A stretch of 64,000 bases of DNA. Source: Escherichia phage EJP2. The notes below the pieces were generated by a model, which saw nothing but the letters and a program-made list of their open reading frames with translations, was not told the DNA's origin and did no database searches. Each line of letters begins with the position of its first letter. Position 1 is the first letter of the stretch. The stretch lies in sequence record OQ411014.1; one strand, written 5' to 3'. The translations under genes and the position numbers were made by a program. Of this stretch, positions 21,966 to 54,941 are shown piece by piece.

Positions 21966-23381
21966 ATGAGCGTACTTTCTATTTTGACTGAACTAAAAGA
22001 CAATGCATCTATTCTGGTCAAAAAAGACATTCTCAATAAAAACAAGGACGATGCAGTACTGCAACGTGTTCTCAAACTAGCTTTAGACCCAGGAATTGTA
22101 AGTGGTTATAAGAAGCTACCGAATCCCTTCGTTAGTGAAACTAAGTACACACTCAACGAAGCACTAAATCAGCTTGATGATATCTACACTCGTAAGTACA
22201 CTGGTCATGCTGGACGTGACCACATTGCACAAATCCTAGGTTCAGTCACTGAAGATGACCGTGAAGTTATCCGTCGAGTACTGACTAAGGACTTAGAGTG
22301 TGGTGCTAGTGATAAGATTGTGAACGATGTATTTGGTAAAGGTTTTGTCAAAGATGAACCGTATATGCGTTGTTCATTGATTGATCATAAAACTGCAAAA
22401 AACATCAACTTCGATGGTTATGGTTATGCTGTCTCTGAAGTAAAAATGGACGGCACTTACCTGAACCACGTAGTCATCAACAATGCACTAACATCCTCAT
22501 CCAGAAATGGTAAACTATATGATTTTCTTGGTTGTCGTGACTTAGAAATGAGTGGGGTTGCTGGAATCATTCAGAAAAATGATCCACGTTTCAGTTCTGG
22601 TGTAGTTTTCATGGGAGAAGGTTTAGTACTAGACACTGATGGCACTATTCTTCCACGAACAACTGGTAATGGGATCATCCAAAAAGCGGGTAAAGATTCC
22701 ATAACATCGTTCGAAGCTATGCGGGTAGTCTTTGTATTATGGGACGTTGTTCCATATGATGCATTCTGTAATGGTTTTTGGGATGTGAAACGCAAAGAGC
22801 GTCGTGAAATACTTGAAAGTGCAATCAACGAATTCGATAGTGAATTTGTACGTATGGTTGAGTACCGTAAAGTAAAAAATCTAAAAGAAGCATTTGATTA
22901 TAACACTGAACTCATGAACAAGGGTGAAGAAGGTTCAGTACTGAAATGTGAAGATGGTGTTTGGAAATCACACACTTCTCCTAAGCAATTGAAAATGAAA
23001 CTGAAAATGCAAATTGATTTACGCATTGTAGGATTCAATGAAGGGGATAAGAAACGTAAAGGCTGTTTGGGTTCTTTACAACTTGAAAGTGATTGTGGTA
23101 CATTGAAAGTGAATGTAGGTACTGGTATCAAAGAGAAAGATGCCGAATGGACATTCAAAAGTATCTGGGAAAAACGTTTTGAACTATTGAATAAGATTGT
23201 CACTGTTGAGGCAAATGAAATCGTAGTTGATAAACGTACTGGAGAACCATCACTATTTTTGCCAGTGTTTGTTGAATTTAGATTTGACAAGGACACATGT
23301 GACACGTATACTCGTATCTTAGAAATTCGAGAAAGTGCTGTTGAGGTATTTGCAAACAGTATTGTTAGTTCTTTATTGTAA
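21966..23381 (+). CDS. ATP-dependent DNA ligase (T4 gp30-like)
   Basis: Motif I EVKMDGTY (KxDG); VIRRVLTKDLECGAS parallels T4 VLRRVMMRDLECGAS; 471 aa. Confidence 0.9.
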   Translation: MSVLSILTELKDNASILVKKDILNKNKDDAVLQRVLKLALDPGIVSGYKKLPNPFVSETKYTLNEALNQLDDIYTRKYTGHAGRDHIAQILGSVTEDDREVIRRVLTKDLECGASDKIVNDVFGKGFVKDEPYMRCSLIDHKTAKNINFDGYGYAVSEVKMDGTYLNHVVINNALTSSSRNGKLYDFLGCRDLEMSGVAGIIQKNDPRFSSGVVFMGEGLVLDTDGTILPRTTGNGIIQKAGKDSITSFEAMRVVFVLWDVVPYDAFCNGFWDVKRKERREILESAINEFDSEFVRMVEYRKVKNLKEAFDYNTELMNKGEEGSVLKCEDGVWKSHTSPKQLKMKLKMQIDLRIVGFNEGDKKRKGCLGSLQLESDCGTLKVNVGTGIKEKDAEWTFKSIWEKRFELLNKIVTVEANEIVVDKRTGEPSLFLPVFVEFRFDKDTCDTYTRILEIRESAVEVFANSIVSSLL

Positions 23382-29119: not shown

Positions 29120-29178
29120 TACATAATATTTATGTTACTTGTTCATTTTTTGTACAGCTAATGCTAAATAAATTTATA

Positions 29179-29207
29179 TTGACACTGATAAGCAAACATG
29201 CTAGAGT
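29179..29207 (+). promoter_or_regulatory. candidate sigma70-type promoter
   Basis: TTGACA (29179-29184), 17-nt spacer, TGcTAGAGT (29202-29207). Confidence 0.45.
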
Positions 29208-29238
29208 AATCATCTTACACATTCATTGTAGAGGGTAT

Positions 29239-29853
29239 ATGAAAAAAATTCCATTAGAATTGTTACAGATATTTCTTATCTGGTTGCTATGTACTGTTCC
29301 CAGTTCAGCAGAAAGTTTGTCCAGTACTATCTTTAGAGATAAAGAGAATATTGTTCATTTTGGTGCTCCAGTTTCATTCGAGGCATATAGCAAATTACTG
29401 AAAATGTATAAGATAAAACCATTTTCTGAAATTAGACTCACCAGTAATGGTGGAGAATATGATGCTGGTATGAAGATTGCTCACTTAGTTTACACCAATG
29501 ACATATCAGTCTTTGTTCCAAAGTACTGTGCAAGTGCATGTACATTTATATTTTTTGGAGCTAGGGTTGAGCACCGTGACATTGCACCAACGGCAATGTT
29601 GGGATTACATAATGTGTCGTTTGGTATGAACAACTCAACGGGTGAAGACGCGAATAACTCGTCGATAACAGTCAAGGAGGCACTTGATTTTGCACAAGAA
29701 GCAGTTGTAAGATCAGGAATGATGATTTCATTCTATTCTGCGAATGGGATACCAAGTGATGTACTACTTCAAGTATCACAAACATATGGTCAAGGTATCA
29801 TAAATGTGCAACGGGCTGACTTAGTTCGTTGGGGTGCAATACAAGCGAAATAA
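29239..29853 (+). CDS. secreted ClpP/S49-like (crotonase-fold) protein
   Basis: Start moved to ATG 29239: signal peptide MKKIPLELLQIFLIWLLCTVPSSAES; TSNGGEYDAGMKIAHLV and CASACTFIFFG resemble the SPGG and Ser regions of ClpP/SppA-type proteins. Confidence 0.55.
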   Translation: MKKIPLELLQIFLIWLLCTVPSSAESLSSTIFRDKENIVHFGAPVSFEAYSKLLKMYKIKPFSEIRLTSNGGEYDAGMKIAHLVYTNDISVFVPKYCASACTFIFFGARVEHRDIAPTAMLGLHNVSFGMNNSTGEDANNSSITVKEALDFAQEAVVRSGMMISFYSANGIPSDVLLQVSQTYGQGIINVQRADLVRWGAIQAK

Positions 29854-30716: not shown

Positions 30717-31790
30717 ATGAAAAACGAAAACGTATATGTATACATCGGACGCTTCCAGCCAGCACATAAAGGCCACGAAGCAGTACTTGAAAATGCAATC
30801 AAAAAAGCTGACCGTGTTGTTATTCTAGTGGGTAGTGCTGAACAAGCTCGTTCCCCTAAGAACCCGTTCACCTTTGAAGAACGCCAAAAAGTACTGGACG
30901 GTATCACAACTCGTCTTGCACAAGATGAATGGGCGAAAGGTCGCCGTGTGATGATCGACATCCTACCTGTACATGACTTCGTATACAACAACCAGAAATG
31001 GCTCATGGAAGTTCAAGAACAAGTTCGTTCCTGCACTAAAAGTGAAAACATTACTCTAACTGGTTGTCGTAAACATGGCGATGATAGTACTTTCTATCTT
31101 GAGTTCTTCCCTCAGTGGAATCAAGATTTCATTACAGAAACTACACAAGAAGATGTTGGTATCAATGCCACTCAACTACGTAACCAATTCTTCAGTACTA
31201 AACAAGTACCTGAACAAAATGTACTTACTCCTGAAACTGTAGAGTTCCTTGAGAAGTTCAGCGTAGAAAAGAAAGATGTACTAGATTACCTAGTGAAAGA
31301 ACATGCTTTTACTACAAAATATAAAGCAGACATGAAGAAACAACTACCATTTGACACAATCCCATTCCTGACTGGTGATAGTCTGATTGTCTGTGCAGGT
31401 CATGTTCTTGTAGGTATTCGTCGCTCTGAACCAGGCAAAGGTCAGTACTGTCTACCTGGTGGGTTCTTCGATGCATGGAAAGATAAAGATCAAGTTGATA
31501 CTGCTTTACGTGAACTCAAAGAAGAAACCAAAATTGATGTACCAATGAATAAACTACGCGGTTCTATTGAACGTGTAGAAGAGTTTGGTGACTTTGACCG
31601 TGACCCACGCTGGCGTGTAATCACTAAGTGCATCTACATCAAACTTGACGGTACTAAACTACCTAAAGTAAAAGGCTCAGATGATCTCAAAGGTTGCTTC
31701 TGGATGCCTATGACTGAAATTGCTAAAAATCGTGCTAACTTCTTTGTTGATCACGTTTCCATCATTGACACGTTCTTAGGAATCCTGTAA
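30717..31790 (+). CDS. natV: bifunctional NMN adenylyltransferase / Nudix hydrolase (NadM-Nudix, KVP40 NatV-like)
   Basis: N-terminal IGRFQPAHKGH (HxGH); C-terminal Nudix box GGFFDAWKDKDQVDTALRELKEETKI. Confidence 0.85.
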   Translation: MKNENVYVYIGRFQPAHKGHEAVLENAIKKADRVVILVGSAEQARSPKNPFTFEERQKVLDGITTRLAQDEWAKGRRVMIDILPVHDFVYNNQKWLMEVQEQVRSCTKSENITLTGCRKHGDDSTFYLEFFPQWNQDFITETTQEDVGINATQLRNQFFSTKQVPEQNVLTPETVEFLEKFSVEKKDVLDYLVKEHAFTTKYKADMKKQLPFDTIPFLTGDSLIVCAGHVLVGIRRSEPGKGQYCLPGGFFDAWKDKDQVDTALRELKEETKIDVPMNKLRGSIERVEEFGDFDRDPRWRVITKCIYIKLDGTKLPKVKGSDDLKGCFWMPMTEIAKNRANFFVDHVSIIDTFLGIL

Positions 31791-31791
31791 T

Positions 31792-32331
31792 ATGAATGTA
31801 ATTTCTCTGACTCCAGGTTTGAAAGCAGACTTGGATGCAGTAAAGGAAAGTAAGTACAATAAGATAACTAGCTGTACTGAACTAATCTTGAGTACTGATG
31901 GTTATTCTGAATGTAATCAATTGTTCGTTGATGCACTTCAACACATTGATAAAAAACTGTATCTAACCGATTTTCTTTATCTTATTCAGAGAACGTGGAT
32001 TAGCAATGCACAAAACAGAAATCACCTGAATTCAGGTGAAAGTACTTCAAGCTATGGTTATTGGAAATATAACTTCGCTGGAGTATCATCGGATACTTTA
32101 TACATTACGAACTATGTTCCGTCTGGAAATATCAGAATTGTCGATTCAGTACAACATTATGAATATTATGATATTGACACGGAAAAGCCAAGTCTGTATA
32201 CTATATCCGATATCGTAATTAGAAATGAAAAGACATTGTTCAACATGGTATTTCCAACGACTACTAAACTGTTTTCGAAGGAATACATGAAGTTCACAAT
32301 TCCATTGTCTCTGATTATGAACAACCAATAA
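31792..32331 (+). CDS. hypothetical protein (179 aa)
   Basis: ORF track; lies between the two NAD salvage genes. Confidence 0.65.
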   Translation: MNVISLTPGLKADLDAVKESKYNKITSCTELILSTDGYSECNQLFVDALQHIDKKLYLTDFLYLIQRTWISNAQNRNHLNSGESTSSYGYWKYNFAGVSSDTLYITNYVPSGNIRIVDSVQHYEYYDIDTEKPSLYTISDIVIRNEKTLFNMVFPTTTKLFSKEYMKFTIPLSLIMNNQ

Positions 32332-32379
32332 GAACGCGGAGTTCTTATATAACATCAACTACCAAAGAGGTAATATAAA

Positions 32380-33852
32380 ATGCAAAACGTAAATTTCATC
32401 CTAAACGCAGATAGTTACAAGCACTCTCATTTACTAATGATGAAAGAAGGTGTTCAAGCTCTTGAATCAAACATCATTGCTCGTAAACCATCTAAATTCA
32501 CCAGTCATGTAGTTATGATGGGTCTTCAGATTTTCGTTCAGGAATATCTGGATATCACAATTACTGCGGCTGATATCGATGAAGCAGAGATTGAAACAAA
32601 CGAACGTGGTGATGATTTTGACCGCGACTTCTGGGAACACATCGTGAATGTACACAAAGGTAAACTACCTTTACATATCCGTGCTATCCCTGAAGGTACA
32701 GTAGTTCCAGTTGGTATGCCGTTGGTTCGCTCCTTCAGTACTGACCCACGTACTATGGTACTCGCTAGTTTCGTCGAAACTCAATTACAACGTGCAATCT
32801 GGTTCCAAACTACTGTTGCATCTAATGCTCGCAGTATCAAGGAATTTCTTGCTGATACTATGGAACGTCATGCTGGTCATCGCTTTGTGGATTATCATCT
32901 ACATAACTTCGGCTGTCGTGGTGCAAGTTCCTATGAAACAGCAATGCTCGCAGGTGTAGCTCATGCCGCTCTATTCAGTGGCTCTGACTGCCTATTAGCA
33001 AACCGTAGTATCAAATACTACTACAATACTACTAAACCATATGTTAGTAGTGTTATGGCGAGTGAACACAGTGCTACATGTTCTAACTCCGATGCAGACA
33101 AGCGTGATGATTCAGCAATGGCGTTGAAGATGGTTCGCCTATGGGAAAAGAAAGTAGATAAGTTCATTGCTAATGGTTCAGTTGGTGCACCCCCAATTGT
33201 TTCTGTAGTAATCGATACTTATGATGCTTATCGCTTTGTTCGTGAGTTCATCGGTACTCGTCTAAAATCTACAATCGAAGAGATTGCAGCTAAATGTCCA
33301 AGTGCTAAACTAGTAATGCGTCCTGATAGTGGTAATCCACTAACTATGCCAATCGAAATCGTATCTATCCTTATGGAGAAATTCGGTTCAGTACTGAATG
33401 CTAATGGCATGAAAGTACTTCCATCTTTCATTGGTGTTCTTCAGGGCGACGGAGTTTCAGAAAGTTCAATCCGTGAAATCGTCCACAACCTAGAGAAAAA
33501 GAACTACTCTCTAGAGAATCTAATCTTTGGTATGGGTGGTAAAAACTCCCACGTCGAAGGTGGTCGTGATGCATATTCTTTCGCCCAGAAAGGTTGTGCA
33601 CAGCAACTAGCTGATGGTACTTGGGAAGATTTGTTCAAAGATCCTATTACTGACGTTGGGAAAAAATCCCTTCGTGGTCGTGTAACTACTTACTTGTGCA
33701 AAGAAAGTGGGAAGATGATGGCTGAACGAATCGAACTACAAGAAGTAAATCCTTTCTTAGAAGATATGATGGTTGACATTTTTGTAAATGGTGATATCAT
33801 GAATCTAAGCTCTTTTGATGATGTACGTGCTCGTGCGAACAAGGGATTGTAA
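32380..33852 (+). CDS. nadV: nicotinamide phosphoribosyltransferase (Nampt/NadV)
   Basis: N-terminal NFILNADSYKHSH; 490 aa; RPDSGNP; GVLQGDG; family-typical layout. Confidence 0.88.
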   Translation: MQNVNFILNADSYKHSHLLMMKEGVQALESNIIARKPSKFTSHVVMMGLQIFVQEYLDITITAADIDEAEIETNERGDDFDRDFWEHIVNVHKGKLPLHIRAIPEGTVVPVGMPLVRSFSTDPRTMVLASFVETQLQRAIWFQTTVASNARSIKEFLADTMERHAGHRFVDYHLHNFGCRGASSYETAMLAGVAHAALFSGSDCLLANRSIKYYYNTTKPYVSSVMASEHSATCSNSDADKRDDSAMALKMVRLWEKKVDKFIANGSVGAPPIVSVVIDTYDAYRFVREFIGTRLKSTIEEIAAKCPSAKLVMRPDSGNPLTMPIEIVSILMEKFGSVLNANGMKVLPSFIGVLQGDGVSESSIREIVHNLEKKNYSLENLIFGMGGKNSHVEGGRDAYSFAQKGCAQQLADGTWEDLFKDPITDVGKKSLRGRVTTYLCKESGKMMAERIELQEVNPFLEDMMVDIFVNGDIMNLSSFDDVRARANKGL

Positions 33853-33895: not shown

Positions 33896-34534
33896 ATGTG
33901 GTCTAAAGTAAAAGATAATCTAGATGCGTACATTATCCCACTACACGATGTGGTATGGCTACGAGATGAAGTACGTAAGGCAATGACCGAAGGTTATGCG
34001 TTTCCAGCAGAAGAAGATGAAATTCAAAAAGATGCATCAGTAGTTTCTGATGAAATGATTATCGGTTATCCAGATCCAGAAAATGAAAATATGTTCATGT
34101 TTGGATTCAAAGATGATGATTGTCTGGACGACCAAAGTATCATTGACCACATTACACATCGCTGTTGGGAAGATATTAGTGAAGCTGGTATTGTTTCATT
34201 TGGTGAAATGGAAAGTTTTTCAGCAGTTGTGTATAATGAAGATGTTCCAAATTTCCGTAAGCACAAGACAGAAGTGGATAACTTCCTAACTCATTTGATT
34301 GGTCGATCTATTGTTAGTGATGAGCCATCATTCCTCAATAACACTGCGGAATGTAAAGAATTCATCTTAGAACGATATGATTATGAAAATATGAAACGTA
34401 CTGCGACGAATAAGTGGGGCAACTTCAATTATCGTTTATTTGAAAATGATGAAGGAGATGTCGTGACAATCGTTACATACAATGCTAAACTGATCTCCTA
34501 CTATAACTTCAGATACAAAGACGAGGATCTATAA
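33896..34534 (+). CDS. acidic hypothetical protein (212 aa)
   Basis: ORF track; GAGG RBS. Confidence 0.65.
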   Translation: MWSKVKDNLDAYIIPLHDVVWLRDEVRKAMTEGYAFPAEEDEIQKDASVVSDEMIIGYPDPENENMFMFGFKDDDCLDDQSIIDHITHRCWEDISEAGIVSFGEMESFSAVVYNEDVPNFRKHKTEVDNFLTHLIGRSIVSDEPSFLNNTAECKEFILERYDYENMKRTATNKWGNFNYRLFENDEGDVVTIVTYNAKLISYYNFRYKDEDL

Positions 34535-34535
34535 A

Positions 34536-34748
34536 ATGGTTTTGACTTATCTTTTCATGTTCGGTATGTACGCAGTAACCACTGGTTGTGCATGGTTCCT
34601 GACTTCAATTACATTCATTGGTTGGGCCAATCGTGAAGGTAAAATCAAATACGGCTTGTGGTTCCGTGAGTTCAGTCCTTTTGTAGTACCACTATGGATT
34701 ACAACTATTGTAATTTATATTCTCATCCCAGTAGTATTCTTGGGTTGA
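34536..34748 (+). CDS. small membrane protein (70 aa)
   Basis: Two hydrophobic helices. Confidence 0.6.
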   Translation: MVLTYLFMFGMYAVTTGCAWFLTSITFIGWANREGKIKYGLWFREFSPFVVPLWITTIVIYILIPVVFLG

Positions 34749-34788
34749 CATTACAGTACTGTTCAAGATTTTCTAATAAGGATTATAT

Positions 34789-35391
34789 ATGACTTGTATT
34801 ATCGCTTTTACTGATGGTAAATCATCCTTCATCGCAGGTGACAAACTAGGTTCCAACGGCTTTACTAAATCAGTAATGGTTGAACCAAAAGTCTTTGAGA
34901 AAGAGTTTCATCGTGTTAGTACCAATGATGAAGGTACTGTGCGGACGCGTGAAACGATGGCACTCGGTTATACTACGTCATTTCGTATGGGACAACTTCT
35001 GTCTTACAATCTAGTACTGCCTGACCAAGATGCGAATCAATCCTTCAGTCAGTACCTGGTTCAGAAAGTAATTCCACTTATTCGTCATATGTTCAAAGAT
35101 GAATGGGGTGCACGTGATAGCTCACAAGATATTGGTGGTGGTCAGTTCATTATTCTGCATAACCACACTATCTACGAAGTTCAAGGTGACTTCTCAGTAC
35201 TGCAACCTAAGACACAAATTACTGCTGTAGGTTCAGGTACTTACCATGCAATTGCAGCTATGCAAGCACTACAAAGTGTTTCATCTGATACTAAGAAAGA
35301 TCTACTACATTACGTACCAACGATTTTTGATATTGTCAGTACTAATGTAACTTCAGTATCTGCTGAACATGATGTATTGCATTACAAATAA
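34789..35391 (+). CDS. Ntn hydrolase, proteasome beta/HslV-like
   Basis: MTCIIAFTDGKSSFIAGDKLGSNG: Thr2 would be exposed as the N-terminal nucleophile; parallels HslV TTIVSVRRNGHVVIAGDGQ. Confidence 0.6.
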   Translation: MTCIIAFTDGKSSFIAGDKLGSNGFTKSVMVEPKVFEKEFHRVSTNDEGTVRTRETMALGYTTSFRMGQLLSYNLVLPDQDANQSFSQYLVQKVIPLIRHMFKDEWGARDSSQDIGGGQFIILHNHTIYEVQGDFSVLQPKTQITAVGSGTYHAIAAMQALQSVSSDTKKDLLHYVPTIFDIVSTNVTSVSAEHDVLHYK

Positions 35392-35582
35392 TGGTTGATA
35401 TATTTTTCATTGTAATGATGATGCTTGGTGTATTCGGGTTGATTGCAATTACCCGAATCACTGATAGACCATACACAGATAACATTGAACGCGTTTGTAT
35501 GTTTCTACTAAGTACTATAATGTTGGTTATCGTTGGTGTAGTAGGTTCTATGTTTGCAGAACTAATTCTAATTGCGTACTGA
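35391..35582 (+). CDS. small membrane protein (63 aa)
   Basis: Two TM helices; TAATG overlap. Confidence 0.6.
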   Translation: MVDIFFIVMMMLGVFGLIAITRITDRPYTDNIERVCMFLLSTIMLVIVGVVGSMFAELILIAY

Positions 35583-35605
35583 TGTACGCTTTTTAAGGAG
35601 TACTT

Positions 35606-35839
35606 ATGGACTTAGCAGATTTGGTTTATGTTGTATCGTTAGTACTGTACGGTATTTGTATAGTACTGACTATGTTAGAATGGAGTACTTGGAGTGATGG
35701 TTTCAAAGAACTAAATGGTGAGTTTACCTCTAAATACTATGCAATTAGTTATTTTATCATGAAGTTAGGTATGATTGGAATGTATGGTATTTTGGGATAT
35801 CTATTCTACTTCTTACCTGAACATATGAGATTATTTTAG
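35606..35839 (+). CDS. small membrane protein (77 aa)
   Basis: Two TM helices; AAGGAG RBS. Confidence 0.6.
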   Translation: MDLADLVYVVSLVLYGICIVLTMLEWSTWSDGFKELNGEFTSKYYAISYFIMKLGMIGMYGILGYLFYFLPEHMRLF

Positions 35840-35849
35840 GAGATATAAA

Positions 35850-36281
35850 ATGGCAGGAAAAGGATATTGCAGCCTAAAACTTGATAAAGCACAAGCAAAG
35901 GAATTGAAACGGATTTTAAAAATCGGTGGCGTTGAATGCTTAGACCCTTCGGATTTGCATTGTACTTTAATGTACGATGAAAGTAATCCTAACATCAAAA
36001 TGCTCAAGAACACAAAGACTTATAAAGCTAAAGTAACTGGTGTTAGTAAATTGGGTGATGCGATTGTATTGGATTTGGAATCCCCTGGCATCAAGAAACG
36101 TCATCAGGAATTGAAGAATGCTGGTTATAAGCACTCATTCCCTGAATTGAAAATTCATATGAGCATCAACTACGATCCAAAAAGTACTGATAAGGATTTA
36201 CTAGAACTCTTTATCAAATTGAAGGGTATTCCTTCAGTACTGATATTTGGTAATGAAAAATTTGAATCTCTAAAGCCGTAA
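35850..36281 (+). CDS. 2H phosphoesterase, Acb1-like candidate (anti-cyclic-nucleotide signalling)
   Basis: Two H-x-T/S motifs (LHCTLMY at His37, IHMSINY at His103) 66 residues apart in a 143-aa protein, matching the size and spacing of the T4 Acb1 / LigT-type 2H fold. Confidence 0.5.
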   Translation: MAGKGYCSLKLDKAQAKELKRILKIGGVECLDPSDLHCTLMYDESNPNIKMLKNTKTYKAKVTGVSKLGDAIVLDLESPGIKKRHQELKNAGYKHSFPELKIHMSINYDPKSTDKDLLELFIKLKGIPSVLIFGNEKFESLKP

Positions 36282-36291
36282 GGAGTATATA

Positions 36292-37050
36292 ATGGACGTG
36301 AATAAATTTCTTGACAACAAAGGACAAAAGCGTCTGTTAGTACTAACTGGTGCGGGTTTCAGTGCGGAATCTGGAGTTAGTACATTTCGTGATGCAGAAG
36401 ATGCCCTATGGGAAGGTGTGAAGATTAACGATGTATGTAACATTGCGAGCTTAGGCTTTAAGTACGCACAAGTACATGCATTCTACAACACACTAAGAAC
36501 TATCATCAAGGACAAAGAGCCTAACGAAGCACACTATGAAATTAGCGTTATGGAGTCAATGTACGGGGATAACTTCCTACACATGACTGCTAATATCGAT
36601 GATTTATATGAGCGTGCTGGTGGCACTGCTATGCACCTTCATGGCAACATCAAAGAAGTCATTGAGAACTATTCAATGGCACATAACGACTTTACAGTAC
36701 TGGATGTTGGATATGAAGTTTATATTCCAAAGGAAGGTGTATTTGCTAAACCTAATGTAGTATTCATTGGTGAATCAGAGCGTTATGTGAATAACCAGCG
36801 TATTCCGTTGTATGAAGAACGAAATAAAGTACTGGCATCCTTGACAGACTTAGATACCGTTGTTATCATTGGTTCATCGGATACAATCCTGAAGTGGAGT
36901 TCGTTGGTTGGTTTAGGCACACCAGCTTATACCATCAACATCAACACAAGAAAGAATGACACTGACTGGGCGTTCGATAAGAAGATTTACAAGCCAGTAA
37001 CTAAAGCGTTATTGGAATTGAGGGAGTTAGTTCTTACACGGATGGGATAG
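36292..37050 (+). CDS. Sir2-family NAD-dependent protein (deacylase or ADP-ribosyltransferase), no Zn-ribbon cysteines
   Basis: GAGFSAESGVSTFRD, TANIDDLYERAG, HLHGN, KPNVVFIGE, IIGSSD motifs; no Cys pairs between HLHGN and VVFIGE. Confidence 0.8.
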   Translation: MDVNKFLDNKGQKRLLVLTGAGFSAESGVSTFRDAEDALWEGVKINDVCNIASLGFKYAQVHAFYNTLRTIIKDKEPNEAHYEISVMESMYGDNFLHMTANIDDLYERAGGTAMHLHGNIKEVIENYSMAHNDFTVLDVGYEVYIPKEGVFAKPNVVFIGESERYVNNQRIPLYEERNKVLASLTDLDTVVIIGSSDTILKWSSLVGLGTPAYTININTRKNDTDWAFDKKIYKPVTKALLELRELVLTRMG

Positions 37051-37059
37051 GAGTGAGTT

Positions 37060-37614
37060 ATGGATTTTACAGAGATACCATTCGGACAACGCAGTGAAAG
37101 ATTTGACTGTGCGTTCGTTTGGATCTACGCTAAGAATTGCACACCATACAAGGATTATCCATATAATGATATTCCTAACGTATCTTTAGTACTGACAGAG
37201 TTACGCTTTGATGGTCTAATGGGTGCGGTTGGTGGAGCAGTTGAGGATGATGATCCTTCATTGGAAGTGGCAGTGCAACGTGAAGCCTTAGAGGAAATAA
37301 ACTTTTCTCTTGACATTACTAATCTGAAACCGTTATTATCATTACGTTCCCCATACGGAGCACATAACCATAGTTTCTCGTACGAAGTACAGTACGATGA
37401 GCTACTAGAGATTCGGAACAACGCATACAAAGGTGCTCACTTCAGTGCTGAAAATGCGGGTGTAAATCTGATTCACGTATGTCGCTATACGAAGGGAAGA
37501 GGGAACGAATGTGGTTACAATAACATTCTTACACAGAATTTTATTGGCACATCCAAACTGGAACTAGAGCGTTTAGTTCATAATGAAAATTTACTAATAA
37601 ATTACCTTGCATAA
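37060..37614 (+). CDS. Nudix hydrolase
   Basis: Nudix box GGAVEDDDPSLEVAVQREALEEINF. Confidence 0.75.
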   Translation: MDFTEIPFGQRSERFDCAFVWIYAKNCTPYKDYPYNDIPNVSLVLTELRFDGLMGAVGGAVEDDDPSLEVAVQREALEEINFSLDITNLKPLLSLRSPYGAHNHSFSYEVQYDELLEIRNNAYKGAHFSAENAGVNLIHVCRYTKGRGNECGYNNILTQNFIGTSKLELERLVHNENLLINYLA

Positions 37615-37624
37615 AGGATAAAAT

Positions 37625-37957
37625 ATGTATAAGATGTTTATAGACGACCTTCGGGATGCAGAGAAGCATTACCCAAATGAAGGATTCATCGTCACAAGGA
37701 CTTACAATGAAGCTGTACAGTACGTACAAGAACATGGTCTACCTAGTTTTGTTTCATTCGACCATGACTTGGGCGACACTGACAGTACTGATGAGAAGAC
37801 TGGATATTCTTTTGCTAAGTTCCTCATCGAGTACATGATTGATAACGATTTGCGGGAACCGTTTGAGTACTTTATTCACAGTGCTAATCCAGTTGGTGCA
37901 GAGAATATCAAACAGTACTTGCAAAATGGGTTCAACTTTATCCAAGGGCAAGCATGA
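37625..37957 (+). CDS. receiver-like domain protein (cyclic-phosphate-processing receiver type, tentative)
   Basis: MFIDDLRD ... SFDHDLG ... HSANPVG pattern recalled for this phage-associated receiver-fold family. Confidence 0.4.
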   Translation: MYKMFIDDLRDAEKHYPNEGFIVTRTYNEAVQYVQEHGLPSFVSFDHDLGDTDSTDEKTGYSFAKFLIEYMIDNDLREPFEYFIHSANPVGAENIKQYLQNGFNFIQGQA

Positions 37958-38244
37958 AAGTAATAACATTTATTCTGATTTTGATTGTTGTTGTTGGTAT
38001 TCGCCTTAAAATAGCGGAGAACCAATACAACACTGAAAGACTGAATATTACGAAAGAATCTGGAACAGTAGTTGCAACTGGACAATGCAACAAATACACT
38101 TGTGCTTACTCTGTAAAAACCTCTAGTGGTTCTACAGTGAACAGTACTGGTGACACTCCGGTAAGTCTCGGTCAAATCGTATACCGTGAATGCTGGGAAG
38201 AAAGGGTCAGGGGTCCGCGTTGTTACGTAGACTTTAGACCATAA
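37954..38244 (+). CDS. membrane-anchored small protein (96 aa)
   Basis: N-terminal TM helix VITFILILIVVVGI; ATGA overlap. Confidence 0.6.
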   Translation: MKVITFILILIVVVGIRLKIAENQYNTERLNITKESGTVVATGQCNKYTCAYSVKTSSGSTVNSTGDTPVSLGQIVYRECWEERVRGPRCYVDFRP

Positions 38245-38269
38245 AACACTATCATGAAAAGGGAATTTT

Positions 38270-39724
38270 ATGAAAAAATATGCTATTGATACAAACGTAC
38301 TTCTAAGCGATCCAAACGCAGCAACCGCTTTCAAAGGTGCTACAGTGGTTCTACCATTTACAGTACTGGAAGAAATGGACTCCATCAAGAGTCGTGGTGT
38401 TGACGTTAGCCGTGATGCACGTGTAGCAATTCGCAATATCAGTAACATCCTGGAAGACGCGTCTCATGAAGAGATTAGTACTACTGGGGTTGATATGTCC
38501 AAACTACATCCACATTTAGATTCCGACAGTCGTCTAATGATTGTTACATCTGAAGAAGCTGAAGCACTTCTACGTGTTGCAGGTATTGATAAGTCCGATG
38601 CTGAACTTACAAAAGTTGCTACACTAATGAACAGTACTGTACCGGATGACAAGATTATTCTTGTTGCTCTAGCTACAGAATCAGTACTGGTTACTCGTGA
38701 TATCAACATGCGTATCAAAGCTATGGCTTATGGTGTTGAAGTTCAGGACTATCGTAGTGATGTTACTATTTCCGATTCTGACCTACTACATATTGGGAAC
38801 CACAAACTAGAGTTTTCGTTCTGGGATACCATTGCGGATCGTGGTTTAGAAGTTTTCAGTACTAAAGAAGGTCGTAACACTTATCAACTAATTGCTAAAG
38901 ATGCAATTCAGGATCTACTACCAGAAAATCTATGCGTTGGTGACTATCTATATGATGACACTGATTTGCTAATGGTATATGATGGAGAAGGTGATCGTGA
39001 GTTCTCTGATGGTGAAGTTGATGACACAGTGTACTCCGTGTTCATTGATGTTGGTCAACACAGTGCAATGCGTACTAAGATTTGGGATATCAAAGCTAAG
39101 AACGTGAAACAAGCAATGGCAATCAACAGTATTCTTGACCCTAATGTTCACTTGACAGTACTGTTAGGTTCTGCGGGTACAGGTAAGACTTTGATTACTC
39201 TAGCATGTGCACTAGAACTAACATTAGAGAAGCGTCAGTACGATAAAGTTATTTTCTCTAAAACCCAAGACTCACAGTTTGATGAAATTGGTTTCTTACC
39301 AGGAACCGAAATGGAAAAAATGCTTCCGAATTGTGGACCTGCACTGGATGCATTGGAATTCCTTCACAAAGATGATGCTAACCCTCAAGGTTCAATTGAA
39401 GAAATCATCAAACGTAATGTTGTACAATTCAAAGCACTGAACTTTATTCGTGGACGTTCGTTTACCAATACAATTCTAGTTGTTGATGAATTCCAAAACA
39501 TTACTCCGGCTCAAGCTAAAACTATCTTGACACGGGCAGGAATGAACTGTAAAGTTATCATCATGGGTAACTTAGCACAGATTGATAGTAAGTTTATCAG
39601 TTCTGTAAACAGCGGTTTGACCTATGTAGTTGAGAAGTTCAAAGATTGGGAAGGTTGTCGTATCATCGAACTCGAAGGTGTTGTACGTTCTGCACTAGCT
39701 GAATTCGCTGAAGAAAATATGTAA
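38270..39724 (+). CDS. phoH: PIN-domain / PhoH-like ATPase fusion (PhoH2/YlaK type)
   Basis: N-terminal YAIDTNVLLSDP (PIN); Walker A GSAGTGKT; VVDEFQN; RGRSF. Confidence 0.85.
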   Translation: MKKYAIDTNVLLSDPNAATAFKGATVVLPFTVLEEMDSIKSRGVDVSRDARVAIRNISNILEDASHEEISTTGVDMSKLHPHLDSDSRLMIVTSEEAEALLRVAGIDKSDAELTKVATLMNSTVPDDKIILVALATESVLVTRDINMRIKAMAYGVEVQDYRSDVTISDSDLLHIGNHKLEFSFWDTIADRGLEVFSTKEGRNTYQLIAKDAIQDLLPENLCVGDYLYDDTDLLMVYDGEGDREFSDGEVDDTVYSVFIDVGQHSAMRTKIWDIKAKNVKQAMAINSILDPNVHLTVLLGSAGTGKTLITLACALELTLEKRQYDKVIFSKTQDSQFDEIGFLPGTEMEKMLPNCGPALDALEFLHKDDANPQGSIEEIIKRNVVQFKALNFIRGRSFTNTILVVDEFQNITPAQAKTILTRAGMNCKVIIMGNLAQIDSKFISSVNSGLTYVVEKFKDWEGCRIIELEGVVRSALAEFAEENM

Positions 39725-48881: not shown

Positions 48882-51581
48882 ATGACTAAAAGAATTTATG
48901 GAGGCTTAGACGTTACTCATAACGTAACAGTTCAGGGCAAAAGGACAGTACAAGGTATCAATAATCAAGTATTCGATGCGAATGGTGATATGAAGATTAA
49001 TACCTATACTCAACAGGAATTACTCGATATTGTTAGCTTAATGCCAATATCACACTACGGTACTCACAACTACTTACCTGCTGGTGTTAGTGGGGACTTT
49101 AATGGTGCAGCGGAGAACCCAGCACAACGTAGAAACAAAATCCTACTGGAGAACGATGGTACACTAGTAATGCTACGTGCTGGTACAAACGGCAGTGTAG
49201 AAGGTTTATTCTATGCTTACCTACCAAATGCACTATCAGTTACTGATTTAGGTAGAGGTGTAAACACTGGTCGTCAGTACAAGCCAGGTTATTTTGGTAG
49301 TACTAAAACTGCTTTCGGTTTGTATAATACAGATGAGAACATTCTTCTAGGAAGATATTCTGATTCGTCAAATGGCAGTACTGGATGGTTTATTTCCATT
49401 ACTAACGGAACACTAGATGACACACAACATAATGGTTTCTTCTTGAATGCTTATACTGATATTGCCCCTCAAGGTGGTGTTGAATATGCAATGATGGCAG
49501 AAGATGGTTCAATTTACGTATTCAGTGTAGATACAAGTAATAACGAATTTAATATTGCAGTTGTTAGAGTTACTTTCAATTTGACGAATAAAACTTACAC
49601 AGCGTCAAGAATCACTGGTTGGACAACCAAGACGTTCTATAATACTACATATTCAGCAGATACTAATATTGTAGTGACGAAGAAAGTAAACTCAACTAAT
49701 ATCGCTGATAAGCCATATATGTACGTTCCGAATGGACTACTTGGTTTAGGTGTATACATGACGTCAATTGACTTGTGTGTAGCACAACAGCCAGGTACAC
49801 AGAACTTCCGCTTTAGAGTTAATGGTGATGCGTGGGCTACTATGGCAACGTATAATACCAGACCACAGCACAGTTATAGTTTCAACTTCAATATGAGTAC
49901 TAAACAATGTACGCTGGATGCAGGGAATGACATTGGTTCAAACGCAGCACCATTTATTGTTACTAATACAGGTTCACAATTAATTGCTTCTGGTAACGTA
50001 ATCAACCAAGATGATTTATATAATCACGGTGGGTGGAGAAACATTTATAGTTCTTACTATTACTTGGATATTGGTACAGTATTCTGTACTACGAGTCCTA
50101 ACTTGTCAGAACCATTGGGGATTGAAAAAGCAACATACCCAGCACAAAGTGTTTACAGTATGCTTAACGTAAGAGCAGTCAATGCATCAGCATTCAATAA
50201 AGGGAATCTTGGTCCTTCGTTCGGTTCAGCAGTTGGTTCTTACATTAACGGCGTAGAATTACTACCAGGTAACAGTACTAAACAATTCTCTCGTTCTTCT
50301 GGTACTGGTGCATTTAGACCATCATATGCAGTACATGCTGCTTCACCTACCTTTACGTTTAAATCTCTTTCAAGAGGTACAATGAAAGGTTATGAGCCTA
50401 CTGCTGAACGTGATTTCATTACAGATAATATAAACAACCGTATTTTCATTAGTACTGTATCTGGTTCGAATGTTACGACAAATGGTGGGATTTTCATGGT
50501 TGGTCAACGTTATTCACAGTCTTTGTCATTTGACAAACATGGTGTTGGTACTGGAACAATCTCGGTCACTGATTCAGTACTGGTAAATTTCAGAAATTCT
50601 GAATATGCAAAAGTACCTGCTTCATGGAATCTTTCTACAGCAGCAACTAAAGATATGACACTATTTGTTCCACAACAAACTGATATTCCTGCTTTTGTAA
50701 TGTTAAGTACTGTTACTACTGGAAATAAAAACTATATTAAGATTGTGGAAGTGAACGTTAATACCAGAAGTGGTAATATTACTTCAATTAGTTTTAAGCG
50801 TAATGTAATTGAAAACGTTTATGGTGATAGTTTTACACCAAATGGTGCTGGTGGTTTTGCTTCATCTTCTGTAGGTTTAACAATATATGATGGCGGTTCG
50901 TTCTACTTTATTGGTGGTTCAGATCCTTTATCTCACCCAACAATTGGCAATACGAATACACATCAATTCAGAGCTATTGTTACTAAAAGTACTGCACAAT
51001 TTGACAGCTTTATTATTTCAGGTTCACATGCTAGTTATGAACAGGGTATTCAACCTGCTGCTCTTCCTGGTATTGGCTTTGGGTATTTCCAAGCAATTGA
51101 CTACTCAAACAAAATGACATTCCAGAAATGTGGTACTACTGTTGCTGAATATAATGCATGGACAGCAATTGGTGATCCAATTAACGTAGTTTCACAAGAC
51201 GTTGCACAAGGATTTGTTGTTTACTTCAACGAAGAAACACCAGTAATGCTCAGTGGTAAGTCATTTACGATGCCAGTTCAAAGTGTTGATTTGAAAACTA
51301 TTAAAGCTAACCCAGCGAATACGACATTCCACATTTATGTGAGAATGAACCAAGGTAATGCAGAATATCATATAACTACTGAAGTTATTTCCGAAACTGG
51401 TAGTACTGCATATAACGTATTCTGGATTGGTACTGTTACTACGGATGCTATCCAAATCTCGACTATTAATGTATTCAAGCGTTCTCGTTTGGATGTATTT
51501 GGTGCATCACTTGAACCAACCGGATCATCATTCCCAGTGAGTTATGGTCTACCATCAGGCAACGGAACAATTAACTGGTAA
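48882..51581 (+). CDS. tail fibre protein (899 aa)
   Basis: Long, Gly/Ser/Thr/Asn-rich and beta-rich; full-length paralogue of 52188..54941; C-terminus ...GSSFPVSYGLPSGNGTINW. Confidence 0.7.
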   Translation: MTKRIYGGLDVTHNVTVQGKRTVQGINNQVFDANGDMKINTYTQQELLDIVSLMPISHYGTHNYLPAGVSGDFNGAAENPAQRRNKILLENDGTLVMLRAGTNGSVEGLFYAYLPNALSVTDLGRGVNTGRQYKPGYFGSTKTAFGLYNTDENILLGRYSDSSNGSTGWFISITNGTLDDTQHNGFFLNAYTDIAPQGGVEYAMMAEDGSIYVFSVDTSNNEFNIAVVRVTFNLTNKTYTASRITGWTTKTFYNTTYSADTNIVVTKKVNSTNIADKPYMYVPNGLLGLGVYMTSIDLCVAQQPGTQNFRFRVNGDAWATMATYNTRPQHSYSFNFNMSTKQCTLDAGNDIGSNAAPFIVTNTGSQLIASGNVINQDDLYNHGGWRNIYSSYYYLDIGTVFCTTSPNLSEPLGIEKATYPAQSVYSMLNVRAVNASAFNKGNLGPSFGSAVGSYINGVELLPGNSTKQFSRSSGTGAFRPSYAVHAASPTFTFKSLSRGTMKGYEPTAERDFITDNINNRIFISTVSGSNVTTNGGIFMVGQRYSQSLSFDKHGVGTGTISVTDSVLVNFRNSEYAKVPASWNLSTAATKDMTLFVPQQTDIPAFVMLSTVTTGNKNYIKIVEVNVNTRSGNITSISFKRNVIENVYGDSFTPNGAGGFASSSVGLTIYDGGSFYFIGGSDPLSHPTIGNTNTHQFRAIVTKSTAQFDSFIISGSHASYEQGIQPAALPGIGFGYFQAIDYSNKMTFQKCGTTVAEYNAWTAIGDPINVVSQDVAQGFVVYFNEETPVMLSGKSFTMPVQSVDLKTIKANPANTTFHIYVRMNQGNAEYHITTEVISETGSTAYNVFWIGTVTTDAIQISTINVFKRSRLDVFGASLEPTGSSFPVSYGLPSGNGTINW

Positions 51582-51590
51582 GGAGAAATT

Positions 51591-52178
51591 ATGCCATTAC
51601 AATACAGAACGGACGTGAACGCAGCAGGACAAATTAAAGTACAGAATAAAACAACTGGTGTTTCTATTACATCAGGTAACGGTCAAGTATATTCTACAAC
51701 ATCTGCGGGGGCGATTACGTTCCCAGTACTGACAACTGATGATGTGGATTATATTACACTTGAATTACCACTCTCTCAGTTCGGAGAATTGTATGAGAAT
51801 ACTAGTCTTAATATTACAAGTACTGGTTTAGTACTGAAGTTTAATAGAATAATTCCACTCTTCATGAGTGGGATTTACTACGATGTTCCAGTTCAGAACA
51901 TCACAGCACAAGCTGCAACGTCAGGTACAGCAACATATTATGTGTATGTTAAACTAGAACTTGGTGCACCAAAATATTTCATCTCCAGAACAGAAGGTGT
52001 TGAGAACGAAATAACCATGTTCATAGGTACTATCACAGTAAGTACTACCACAATAACAGCAATCAATATTAACAAAGTTTCCAGATTCGGTACATACAGA
52101 CCGAGTACTACACAGAAAGGTTCTTCTTTCCCTGTCAGTACTGGACACCCTTCACAAACTGGTTCAATTAACTGGTAA
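51591..52178 (+). CDS. tail-fibre C-terminal-module protein (195 aa)
   Basis: Corresponds to the last ~120 aa of both flanking fibre genes (P.Q...A....Y.Y.....FIGTI...I......V.RF.TYRPST..KGSSFPVSTGHPSQTGSINW). Confidence 0.65.
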   Translation: MPLQYRTDVNAAGQIKVQNKTTGVSITSGNGQVYSTTSAGAITFPVLTTDDVDYITLELPLSQFGELYENTSLNITSTGLVLKFNRIIPLFMSGIYYDVPVQNITAQAATSGTATYYVYVKLELGAPKYFISRTEGVENEITMFIGTITVSTTTITAININKVSRFGTYRPSTTQKGSSFPVSTGHPSQTGSINW

Positions 52179-52187
52179 GGAAATAAC

Positions 52188-54941
52188 ATGTCATCTAAAA
52201 GAGTAATAGGTTCAGTTGAGTTTTTAAGTAACTTAGCTGTAAATGGGAAATACGCAATGCGTTCCTTTAATGGTGTCAATCCAGATGCCAATACTGGTAT
52301 AATCACTTATCCATTTTATACCAGAGAAGAAGTTCAGAAGATTCTCGATATACTCCCTGTTTCACGTATAGGTGAAATGGACTATCTACCACCGAACGTA
52401 AGTGGTTCCTTTAGTGGAGCTACTTCATTCTCGAATGATCGCAGAGTTCAGCCATGTATTATTGAAGATGATGGTACAGCCGTAATTATTCGCCCTGGTA
52501 CGAATGGTAGTCAGTTTGATTTTTATTATGCTTACATCCGTAACGTCAGAAATATCCCAACTCTAACACAAAGTGATATTGTTCAGACGAATACCAGATA
52601 TCACCCATCATATCTTACTAGTACTCAAAAGATTGAACAATTTTACGGTACTGATGGATATGATCTTCTTTGGTACAGAGTTTCTGACTCAGTTAATAGT
52701 TCAAACTATTTTGCAATTACATTAACTAACGGTTCCTTTAACGTAGTAGGTCACCAACATGCTCTTATTCCACAAACATCTATGCCTAATTTCACACCAG
52801 CATATGCTCATATCGTGAATGGTTCAGTATACATGTGGGGCTATGACAGTACTTTAGGTTCAGGTAGAGCATTGAAGTTATACACTATCCCAACTAGTTC
52901 GTTGCGTTCTGGTGTTACTACTGGTTTAACTGCTGTCACTGGATTTAATGGAAAAACTATCAACGGTAATGCTTATACAGCAGCCAGTACTGCTAGGATT
53001 TATGATACATATGCAAGTACTACCAGTACTGCTGATTGCTTAATTCAATACACGTCTAACATGTATTCTCCTGAATATCACGACTACGCCATCTCCAATG
53101 CAATGGCGGCTGGTAATGCTGATAATACACAGATTCGTTTCACTATGTTCCCTACATATCGTTACGGTTCTGCGTATGGTTTTAGTGGTATATTCATGTA
53201 CGCAATTAGTTTAGTCTATAATATCAGTACTAAAACATTTACGTACGATACTACATCTTTAGGTAAAATTGTGGTGAATGCTACACTAAATGGTTCTACA
53301 ATGACCTATACAGAAACTGCTAACCCATATTTGGTTGATGCAACTTCATGGCGTGGTTTTGGTGCAAGTCTAGGTAACTGTGGAACAATCTGTCAAGCAG
53401 GTGATGGTTTCATGGTGAGTACTCGCTCTCGTTGGGCAAGTTCTGCTCCTTACGGTGTCAGTACTTCTAAGATTAATAACTTTACTTCTCAATTCGATTC
53501 TATTAAAATGACTGGTAGAAGTGTTACTGCAAATACTCAACTATTTGCTAACCCAATCTACGGTTCTGCAATTGGTGAGAACTTGATGGGTCCACGTCTG
53601 TTAAGTAAAACTCGTATGATTCTTGCATGTTCAGGTACATACGATGGTGTATCCAACGCAAGCTATGACAATACTGTAGTTGCGGACTTCGGTACTGATT
53701 CGAACTTCTCATACAAGTCAATGACTCAAGGTACACTTACTGGGTATGCACCACAAACGTATCGTAAATTCGCTAATAATGACAACTTCAGACTATCAGA
53801 ATTAGTAACACTAATGGACAGTACTGGTAATGTTCAAGCAAGTAGTACTGCATTCATCGAGAACGTTAAGTACACTGGTGGGATTGGTATTAACCCTGAT
53901 ACACTTGAATACACTGGCAGTACTGTTAATATGTCCAATGCAGTTATCCAATCACTTAAACAAGGTATTGCAACTTCTGCTGGTATTCCATTGAATACAA
54001 GTTTGCTTACAGTGTATTACATTCCTGATACATCATATTGCAATCACCAAGCAGTACTAATGGTTCGTAATCCTGATAACACTGGCGTTGTAGTACTAGC
54101 TGAAATGAATTTAACTACAAGTACTTCTGGAAGTACAATTACTGTTACTGGTGGTTCTGTAATAAGAACTTTCGTTCAGAACAGACCAAATATTACTTCA
54201 GTAAATGGTGGGAACTACGCTCGTAACGTTGGTGTTTGTGCTGGTAAATTCAGTGGTTTTAATTACCTTAGTGTTCACTCAGCGAATAACTTTGGTGTTC
54301 CTGGTGATGCAAGGTCTTATTCGTTCTTTGCAAAAGTTAAGGGTGGTGCTATAGTATCACAGAGAATCGATGAGTCCTATTATTCACAGACATATGGCAG
54401 GACTGGTGGTTTCCTACCAGGGAAAGGTTTCGGTTATTATGATAACTCAGTGAGTGATTACCAGACCAAATCCGTGTTCCAACTCTTCGGTACTACTGAA
54501 GCACAGATGGATGCACTAATTGCTGGTACTGGAACATCAACACCTGTTGTTGTTATGTCTCAAGAAGTTCCTGAAGGTTTTAGTGTTTACTTTACACAAG
54601 AACTACCAGTATTCTTAGGTGGTATGTACGATAAGCTACCAATCCAGACAGTTGATTTGAGAACTATCAAAGCTGATCCATCCAATACTACTTTCTATAT
54701 CTACGTATCAATGGATAGAAGTAAAGGTGAAGCATCATACGTTATCAGTACTGCACTCTTGGATGAAACTCTAACCAGAGCATTCATTGGTACTATTGTG
54801 ACTATTGATGCAGGTATTGACCGGATTGATGCAGAGAAGGTAACACGCTTCTTGACTTACAGACCAAGTACTTACAAGAGGGGTTCTGCAATCCCTGCGA
54901 GTACTGGTGTTCCATCTGGGACTGGTTCACGCTGGCATTAA
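52188..54941 (+). CDS. tail fibre protein (917 aa)
   Basis: Paralogue of 48882..51581 (N-terminus YLPPNVSGSFSGA vs YLPAGVSGDFNGA; RPGTNGS vs RAGTNGS); C-terminus ...GSAIPASTGVPSGTGSRWH. Confidence 0.7.
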   Translation: MSSKRVIGSVEFLSNLAVNGKYAMRSFNGVNPDANTGIITYPFYTREEVQKILDILPVSRIGEMDYLPPNVSGSFSGATSFSNDRRVQPCIIEDDGTAVIIRPGTNGSQFDFYYAYIRNVRNIPTLTQSDIVQTNTRYHPSYLTSTQKIEQFYGTDGYDLLWYRVSDSVNSSNYFAITLTNGSFNVVGHQHALIPQTSMPNFTPAYAHIVNGSVYMWGYDSTLGSGRALKLYTIPTSSLRSGVTTGLTAVTGFNGKTINGNAYTAASTARIYDTYASTTSTADCLIQYTSNMYSPEYHDYAISNAMAAGNADNTQIRFTMFPTYRYGSAYGFSGIFMYAISLVYNISTKTFTYDTTSLGKIVVNATLNGSTMTYTETANPYLVDATSWRGFGASLGNCGTICQAGDGFMVSTRSRWASSAPYGVSTSKINNFTSQFDSIKMTGRSVTANTQLFANPIYGSAIGENLMGPRLLSKTRMILACSGTYDGVSNASYDNTVVADFGTDSNFSYKSMTQGTLTGYAPQTYRKFANNDNFRLSELVTLMDSTGNVQASSTAFIENVKYTGGIGINPDTLEYTGSTVNMSNAVIQSLKQGIATSAGIPLNTSLLTVYYIPDTSYCNHQAVLMVRNPDNTGVVVLAEMNLTTSTSGSTITVTGGSVIRTFVQNRPNITSVNGGNYARNVGVCAGKFSGFNYLSVHSANNFGVPGDARSYSFFAKVKGGAIVSQRIDESYYSQTYGRTGGFLPGKGFGYYDNSVSDYQTKSVFQLFGTTEAQMDALIAGTGTSTPVVVMSQEVPEGFSVYFTQELPVFLGGMYDKLPIQTVDLRTIKADPSNTTFYIYVSMDRSKGEASYVISTALLDETLTRAFIGTIVTIDAGIDRIDAEKVTRFLTYRPSTYKRGSAIPASTGVPSGTGSRWH

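Follow-up and report, generated by a model that had tools for sequence, protein, structure and literature searches.

T4 Acb1 and nine homologs cleave 3'3'-cyclic GMP–AMP (3'3'-cGAMP), cyclic UMP–AMP (cUA) and cyclic triadenylate (cA3) but not cyclic di-GMP (c-di-GMP), and T4 without acb1 becomes sensitive to the cyclic-oligonucleotide-based antiphage signaling system (CBASS) (Hobbs et al. 2022, PMC9117128). The enzyme, the product of T4 gene 57B, is marked by a catalytic tetrad (H44, T46, H113 and T115), the aromatic residues Y12, W74, F107 and W147, a glutamate (E141) that touches adenine N6, and a C-terminal lid comprising residues 145–152 (PMC9117128). Here we describe a relative of this enzyme encoded at positions 35,850–36,281 of a 64,000-nucleotide stretch of Escherichia phage EJP2 (OQ411014.1), hereafter the window. 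The 143-residue protein belongs to the Acb1 family and has both the fold and the intact catalytic center of a 2H phosphoesterase. It is probably a soluble, metal-independent enzyme with which a ~350-kb GAP32/Hallingskeid-like jumbo phage counters host defense by cleaving immune signals of the cyclic oligonucleotide type.

Two further described systems are relevant. A recent survey of viral 2H phosphodiesterases reported that substrate range tracks variation in the core of the fold (Doherty et al. 2025 preprint, bioRxiv 10.1101/2025.08.21.671373). One of the surveyed enzymes, PDE-9 of phage BCSR5, belongs to structural group 3 and groups with T4 Acb1. It cleaves 3'3'-cGAMP well and 2'3'-c-di-AMP poorly, and hence Panoptes is not triggered; moreover, PDE-9 deprived of its N-terminal lid still cleaves 3'3'-cGAMP (bioRxiv 10.1101/2025.08.21.671373). 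The second system is a gene neighborhood of Serratia phage BF-like jumbo phages, in which a 2H protein is found together with sirtuin, Nudix, cyclic-phosphate processing receiver (cREC) and PIN domains (Iyer et al. 2022, PMC9503650 section 3.7.3). For this neighborhood, NAD+-dependent RNA-end repair has been predicted, with the sirtuin acting in a KptA-like manner and the 2H protein opening cyclic phosphates of RNA or ADP-ribose (PMC9503650).

Family, fold and catalytic center

At the sequence level, the Pfam Acb1 model (PF23474) matches the protein over profile positions 4–137 of 144 with a score of 63.8 bits (cut-off, 27 bits; E = 1.8e-17). The protein also matches PHROG 755 (E = 2e-29), while no NCBIfam model matches it. 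Acb1 of Erwinia phage FBB1 (7T26) was the sole significant sequence match in PDB, and both histidine motifs were aligned. Profile comparison with hhalign gave probabilities of 94.5% to FBB1 Acb1 and 94.9% to BCSR5 PDE-9. When 1.84 billion cluster representatives were searched with a profile, 1,230 relatives were returned at E <= 0.001. Orthologs in GAP32-like jumbo phages already bear the UniProt name "Anti-CBASS protein Acb1".

The structural evidence points in the same direction. An AlphaFold2 model based on 129 sequences (mean pLDDT 96.3, pTM 0.88) has the duplicated 2H architecture, with the topology β1-α1-β2(H37)-β3 / β4-α2-β5(H103)-α3-β6. When the model was compared with PDB using Foldseek, the Burkholderia phage BCSR5 phosphodiesterase (9Q2Y/9Q2G) came out on top with a template modeling (TM) score of 0.81–0.82, followed by FBB1 Acb1 (7T26/7T27; TM 0.62–0.68). 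LigT, cyclic phosphodiesterase (CPDase), CNPase and Usb1 ranked lower, with E-values about a thousand-fold worse. Three solved viral cyclic-dinucleotide phosphodiesterases are closest to the model, and LigT, Usb1 and CPDase score about 10 or less. Among predicted viral structures in BFVD, the best matches are mostly proteins named Acb1 by UniProt, including the Yersinia phage fHe-Yen9-04 ortholog (54% identity, TM 0.94). The initial annotation had called the protein an Acb1-like 2H phosphoesterase and had proposed a search for structural similarity to 2H enzymes as a check. The above-threshold Pfam match, the hhalign probabilities and the Acb1-type nearest structures bear out the call, and the similarity itself was found with the AlphaFold2 model and Foldseek.

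That annotation was built on two H-x-(T/S) motifs, LHCTLMY with His37 (codon 35958–35960) and IHMSINY with His103 (codon 36156–36158), spaced 66 residues apart in a 143-residue protein, and the translation agrees in every respect. Taken by itself, the motif pair is weak evidence for the 2H signature it was said to represent, since by a rough estimate two H-x-[ST] triplets occur by chance in ~5% of similar-sized proteins; it is the family and the model that confirm the 2H assignment. The accompanying claim that a hydrophobic strand precedes each motif turned out to be incorrect. In the model, each catalytic histidine instead opens a β-strand (residues 37–42 and 103–108) within one of the two repeated β-α-β-β lobes.

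The two motifs correspond to H44-x-T46 and H113-x-T115 of T4 Acb1. The catalytic residues are nearly invariant: among 131 aligned family representatives, which underlie all residue counts given here, H37 and T39 are each conserved in 130 sequences and H103 in 129. Position 105, the last member of the tetrad, is Ser in 112 sequences and Thr in 19, so Ser, found in place of the T4 Thr, predominates in this branch. Other features of tested Acb1 enzymes are shared as well. Y6 aligns with T4 Y12 in a column occupied by Tyr or Phe in 127/131 representatives, and F97 aligns with T4 F107 in a column that is Tyr, Phe or Trp in 121/131. The S78...R84-H85 motif is common to T4 and FBB1 Acb1, and E136 is the conserved Glu of the last strand. 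Like T4 and FBB1 Acb1, the protein is a small single-domain phage protein, although identity to them is only 21–24%. An extra helix (residues 114–123) follows the second histidine strand; it is missing from T4 and FBB1 Acb1 but shared with PDE-9, which has the closest core structure despite ~17–24% identity. Conversely, the RH motif common to the window protein, T4 and FBB1 is not present in PDE-9.

Other 2H enzymes were compared as well. The Penguinpox cGAMP phosphodiesterase (9BKQ) comes from a eukaryotic virus and has 203 residues, and 119 residues could be aligned. LigT/ThpR and related RNA 2',3'-cyclic phosphodiesterases (4QAK, 5H7F), as well as the Arabidopsis CPDase acting on ADP-ribose cyclic phosphate (Appr>p; 1FSI), share with it the 2H superfamily, the two HxT/S motifs and cyclic-phosphate chemistry, but they have 170–185 residues and larger lobes.

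The AGGAG Shine-Dalgarno sequence overlaps the stop codon of an upstream open reading frame (ORF) for a 77-residue membrane protein, and the N-terminal MAGKG is common to homologs. A six-frame profile search revealed no second 2H gene in the window.

Gene neighborhood

The 2H gene is the first in a tight same-strand block that continues with genes for Sir2, Nudix, cREC, membrane and PIN-PhoH proteins (Table 1). No strong terminator-like site is present between 35850 and 39730; promoter and terminator scans were otherwise uninformative. The block exactly matches the neighborhood described by Iyer et al. (2022), except that Nudix and cREC are encoded by separate genes here and PIN is fused to PhoH. 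The function assigned by those authors is a computational prediction. The 2H member here belongs to the Acb1 family by sequence and fold. The setting also differs from that of acb1 in T4-like phages, where the neighbors are a deoxynucleoside monophosphate (dNMP) kinase gene, 57A and ipI.

Table 1. Features of the 2H locus and of other genes in the 64,000-nucleotide window
Feature	Position	Strand	Basis or remark
2H phosphodiesterase CDS (coding sequence), Acb1 family, 143 aa (amino acids), ATG start	35850..36281 incl. stop codon	+	ORF list
AGGAG Shine-Dalgarno	35838..35842	+	sequence reading; 7 nt 5' of ATG
First catalytic motif H37-C-T39	35958..35966	+	= T4 Acb1 H44-x-T46; aligns with FBB1 HTT
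Second catalytic motif H103-M-S105	36156..36164	+	= T4 Acb1 H113-x-T115, Ser for Thr
Sir2-family gene	36292..37050	+	Pfam SIR2 1.1e-19, PHROG 2162; 10 nt 3' of 2H gene
Nudt16-like Nudix hydrolase	37060..37614	+	Pfam PF22327 2.6e-17
cREC protein	37625..37957	+	Pfam PF20274 6.1e-26
96-aa membrane protein	37954..38244	+	ORF list
PIN-PhoH, closes conserved block	38270..39724	+	Pfam PIN_4 + PhoH
NAD+ salvage genes	30717..33852	+	NMNAT-Nudix 30717-31790; NAMPT 32380-33852; Pfam
T4-type RNA ligase 1 (Rnl1)	15727-16866
Polynucleotide kinase-phosphatase (Pnkp), T4-type	17570-18499
ATP-dependent DNA ligase	21966-23381
phrog_388 nucleotidyltransferase	55721-56968

Some of the neighbors have features of their own. 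In the Sir2 protein, the GAGxS, TANIDD and HLHGN motifs are retained but there is no Cys for a zinc module, and its scores with all NCBIfam deacetylase models are ~100 bits, far short of their cut-offs of 243–320. GAP32 (GAP32_120) and one metagenomic relative (L020, 6589–7476) have the Nudix and cREC domains fused in a single protein. To our knowledge, no cREC domain has been experimentally characterized.

We next asked how widely this arrangement is conserved. A block with all five domains is also present in L001, L002, L009, L014–L017 and L020. Hallingskeid, GAP32 and 7t3 share the gene order, as do metagenome relatives with identities as low as 51%. Within this group, the adjacency of the 2H and Sir2 genes loosens. 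One ORF is inserted in GAP32, and in L018/L019 (51% identity; 349,780-bp contig) three unknown ORFs separate the two genes and no Nudt16-like gene is detectable. Outside it, no Sir2, cREC or Nudix gene was found near the 2H homolog in N1M2, Arash, OBP, EL, Survivor, D6, Aphrodite1 and BCSR5, nor in six further metagenomic lineages, where the neighbors are unrelated and include genes for Lar, PhoH and a CCA-adding enzyme. The 2H-Sir2-Nudix-cREC-PIN/PhoH order is thus found only in the ~350-kb phage lineage, and the 2H–sirtuin linkage does not recur in independent lineages among these eight named phages and six metagenomic lineages. The initial annotation had noted NAD/Sir2 neighbors and RNA repair genes elsewhere. 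Sir2 is indeed the next gene, NAMPT lies upstream and Rnl1/Pnkp lie ~18–20 kb upstream. The adjacency, although real, is confined to one lineage and is not family-wide.

Upstream, the bifunctional NMNAT-Nudix gene and the NAMPT gene are separated by a 179-residue ORF without a family match, and the same order of the two genes is found in GAP32, 7t3 and Hallingskeid. The region between NAMPT and the 2H gene (33896–35850) is variable among metagenome contigs that encode an identical 2H protein (L014, L015 and L017): ORFs of the DUF723 or HNH_3 type, which are homing-endonuclease-like, come and go, whereas the block 3' of the 2H gene is constant. An HslV-like peptidase (34789–35391; phrog_1040, with weak NCBIfam HslV matches) is encoded three ORFs 5' of the 2H gene; another "protease" (phrog_26024) is found at 29161–29853. 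We considered a connection between the HslV-like protease and the preprint on phage proteases activating CBASS but dropped this idea, as that study deals with the T4 prohead protease gp21 and HslV does not appear in it.

Candidate substrates and roles

If the protein works as T4/FBB1 Acb1 and PDE-9 do, H37/T39 and H103/S105 would face each other across the inter-lobe cleft and carry out acid–base catalysis. Within a cyclic di- or trinucleotide, the 2'-OH beside a 3'-5' phosphodiester would attack the phosphate, the ring would be opened via a 2',3'-cyclic phosphate intermediate, and the same site would hydrolyze this intermediate to a linear product. CBASS-type messengers, possibly including cA3, would thereby be removed before host abortive-infection effectors switch on. 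The NAD+-salvage genes beside the 2H gene can be read as counter-defense too; the NMNAT-Nudix and NAMPT pair matches the NARP2 counter-defense pathway as outlined in PMC13464706. Such a role would add another Acb1-family counter-defense gene in an NAD+-gene-rich jumbo-phage region, a result of annotation value and, because UniProt names the orthologs Acb1, an unsurprising one. Among the substrates proposed initially, cyclic UMP and CMP (cUMP/cCMP) were rejected, as no inactivation of cUMP by T4 Acb1 was seen when tested with PycTIR (Hobbs et al. 2022, Fig. 4b source data). Glyco-cyclic ADP-ribose (gcADPR) is unlikely from the standpoint of 2H chemistry, since it does not offer such an enzyme a phosphodiester with a vicinal 2'-OH beside it.

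This immune-signal assignment is uncertain because the lids and the hairpin aromatic are missing and 2H cores differ sharply in substrate, and a number of specific observations weigh against it. The W74-type hairpin aromatic (W74 in T4, F74 in FBB1, W84 in PDE-9) is absent, and a tight turn, L68-G69-D70, takes its place; the hairpin loop is likewise absent in 40/131 representatives, while GAP32-type relatives retain a KPGGEW loop. There is neither the C-terminal W147 lid nor the 15-residue N-terminal lid of PDE-9: strand 1 is preceded by just five residues (MAGKG), and the chain ends seven residues after E136. Of the four stacking aromatics only two remain, and neither lid is present. The W147 column is a gap in 107/131 representatives, although F138 falls in a W/F column (58/131) and, judging by the alignment, may partially substitute for W147. 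E139, which aligns with the adenine-reading E141 of T4 Acb1, varies within the subclade (E/S/N/G); in T4 Acb1 itself, E141A barely changed cGAMP cleavage (Hobbs et al. 2022 supplement). Experimental findings on other enzymes add to these concerns. Lid-less T4 Acb1 is inactive in vivo, which bears directly on a protein without the W147 lid, and some viral 2H structural groups are inactive on all 18 messengers, with the core setting specificity (bioRxiv 10.1101/2025.08.21.671373). Moreover, the gene is closely grouped with those for Sir2, Nudix and cREC on one strand, in a block for which action on RNA or ADP-ribose cyclic phosphates has been predicted (PMC9503650). Finally, we found no biochemical data in the literature for members of the lid-less branch. 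The supplements of Hobbs et al. (2022) hold no list of the nine tested Acb1 homologs, and in Supplementary Table 1 of Doherty et al. (2025), which covers 75 phage 2H phosphodiesterases including those of Erwinia phage AH04 and Vibrio phage V07, we recognized no GAP32-like protein among the 16 purified. The missing elements do not look like decay. Since equally short, lid-less termini are found in 52/131 representatives and the loop is lost in 40/131, the minimal architecture appears to be a stable variant.

With these points in mind, we considered what else the protein might do. The gene block suggests that it could provide the cyclic-phosphate-opening step of NAD+-dependent RNA-end repair or ADP-ribose clean-up, with the 2H-Sir2-Nudix-cREC-PIN/PhoH genes acting together and Nudix and cREC degrading the products. 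Exactly this neighborhood has been so interpreted for BF-like jumbo phages (PMC9503650). Consistent with a common function, the genes are 9–10 nt apart on one strand without a strong terminator-like site inside, and their order is retained in Hallingskeid, GAP32, 7t3 and relatives to 51% identity; in addition, distant homologs adjoin PhoH or lie near a gene for a CCA-adding enzyme. Acb1-type chemistry itself passes through a 2',3'-cyclic phosphodiesterase step, and therefore this role and cleavage of immune signals are compatible. However, the linkage is limited to one lineage, with six jumbo phages of the nucleus-forming or other types and six further metagenomic lineages having the homolog but not Sir2, Nudix or cREC, and even within the lineage the adjacency erodes through the insertions seen in L018/L019 and GAP32. 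Furthermore, the function of the module is itself only predicted, and the phage already has Pnkp and Rnl1. In T4, these two enzymes heal and seal RNA ends, and T4 carries anti-CBASS Acb1 in addition to both. On balance, we regard RNA-end repair or ADP-ribose clean-up, although the leading rival, as rather unlikely to be what the protein does. The LigT side of RNA metabolism fares considerably worse. PHROG 755 and many GenBank phage records carry the label "RNA ligase", and there is a weak match to the LigT-type Pfam model PF13563 (2_5_RNA_ligase2). Yet this match reaches only 19.2 bits, under the cut-off of 27; the same label is attached to gene 57B in the RB68 record although T4 57B is Acb1; and the structure is far less similar to LigT than to Acb1-type phosphodiesterases. 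A LigT-type 2'-5' RNA ligase is therefore highly implausible. Of the two roles that the initial annotation had left side by side, the Acb1-type one is favored, and the LigT/RNA-repair one is weakened both by the low Pfam score and by the presence of Pnkp and Rnl1.

Alternatively, the protein may be a signal-degrading counter-defense enzyme directed at a different or narrower set of messengers, such as cA3 from type III CRISPR, 2'-5' oligoadenylates, 2',3'-cyclic nucleoside monophosphates (2',3'-cNMPs) or an undescribed signal. The pocket would be reshaped by loss of the lids and the hairpin aromatic, and such a pocket may spare 2'3'-c-di-AMP and so avoid Panoptes. The prevalence of lid-less and loop-less members as a stable variant fits this idea, as does the finding that variation in the 2H core sets range, with some groups showing a narrow range or no activity across the 18 compounds (bioRxiv 10.1101/2025.08.21.671373). 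On the other hand, the top structural match, PDE-9, is a broad enzyme of group 3 that is active on 3'3'-cGAMP without its lid. We consider such a specialized enzyme improbable. An equally speculative and improbable combination of these ideas is that the lid-less, loop-less branch (~40% of sampled representatives) is not anti-CBASS at all. Instead, together with the Zn-less sirtuin, Nudix and cREC, it might open cyclic phosphates of RNA or ADP-ribose, or an NAD-derived signal, with the products passed to NAMPT/NMNAT salvage. Cleavage of cyclic oligonucleotide immune signals is the role we favor. Both the Acb1 naming of the orthologs and the gene neighborhood were already known, and the modest added interest of the locus is that it represents the lid-less branch. 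This large branch of the family does without the elements so far tied to substrate capture, namely both lids and the hairpin aromatic. Together with its relatives in Hallingskeid and GAP32, the window protein offers convenient models from a cultivable lineage for how a bare 2H core chooses its signal and for the link to Sir2, Nudix and cREC.

Relatives and other genes in the window

At the DNA level, megablast found no match to the region 34500–38500 among 50,697 phage records. The closest protein, with 75% identity, is that of Erwinia phage Hallingskeid. The ~350-kb jumbo phages GAP32, CBB, BF, fHe-Yen9-03/04, pEa_SNUABM_19/50 and 7t3 follow at 49–57%, and many other jumbo phages have homologs at 26–40%, including KVP40 gp57B. 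An identical 143-residue protein is present in 41 blocks of a metagenome collection (24 contigs that encode it were examined), indicating a common uncultured phage.

Some family members are fused to other domains, including Tad5 (a Thoeris inhibitor), DarA_N, MuF and a GNAT acetyltransferase (P0067, P0138, P0068, P0036). Partners of this kind are typical of injected or counter-defense proteins. One metagenomic homolog adjoins the anti-restriction gene Lar. Another family member, the 801-residue P0141, has two apparent Acb1-type stretches. In phages of the OBP, N1M2, Survivor and D6 types (L005, L007, L010 and L011), the Acb1-family gene is located between an RNA polymerase subunit gene and SbcD. 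This fixed slot suggests a long-standing gene of the core region rather than a mobile accessory. In EL, Aphrodite1, Arash and BCSR5, the homolog is found in other settings.

Despite the RNA-repair gene set, no tRNA genes were found in the 64 kb. Elsewhere in the window (48882–54941), two paralogous ORFs of 899 and 917 residues share 28% identity over 949 columns, and between them lies a 195-residue ORF resembling their C-termini. These ORFs fall into PHROG 3573, 7449 and 26864, which are families without assigned function, and have no Pfam match. Two pairs of tandem paralogs were also observed, one at 8740–9309 and 9306–9836 (40% identity) and the other at 59731–60291 and 60288–60782 (27% identity). 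Both pairs lie within long runs of ORFs of 170–200 residues without assigned function.

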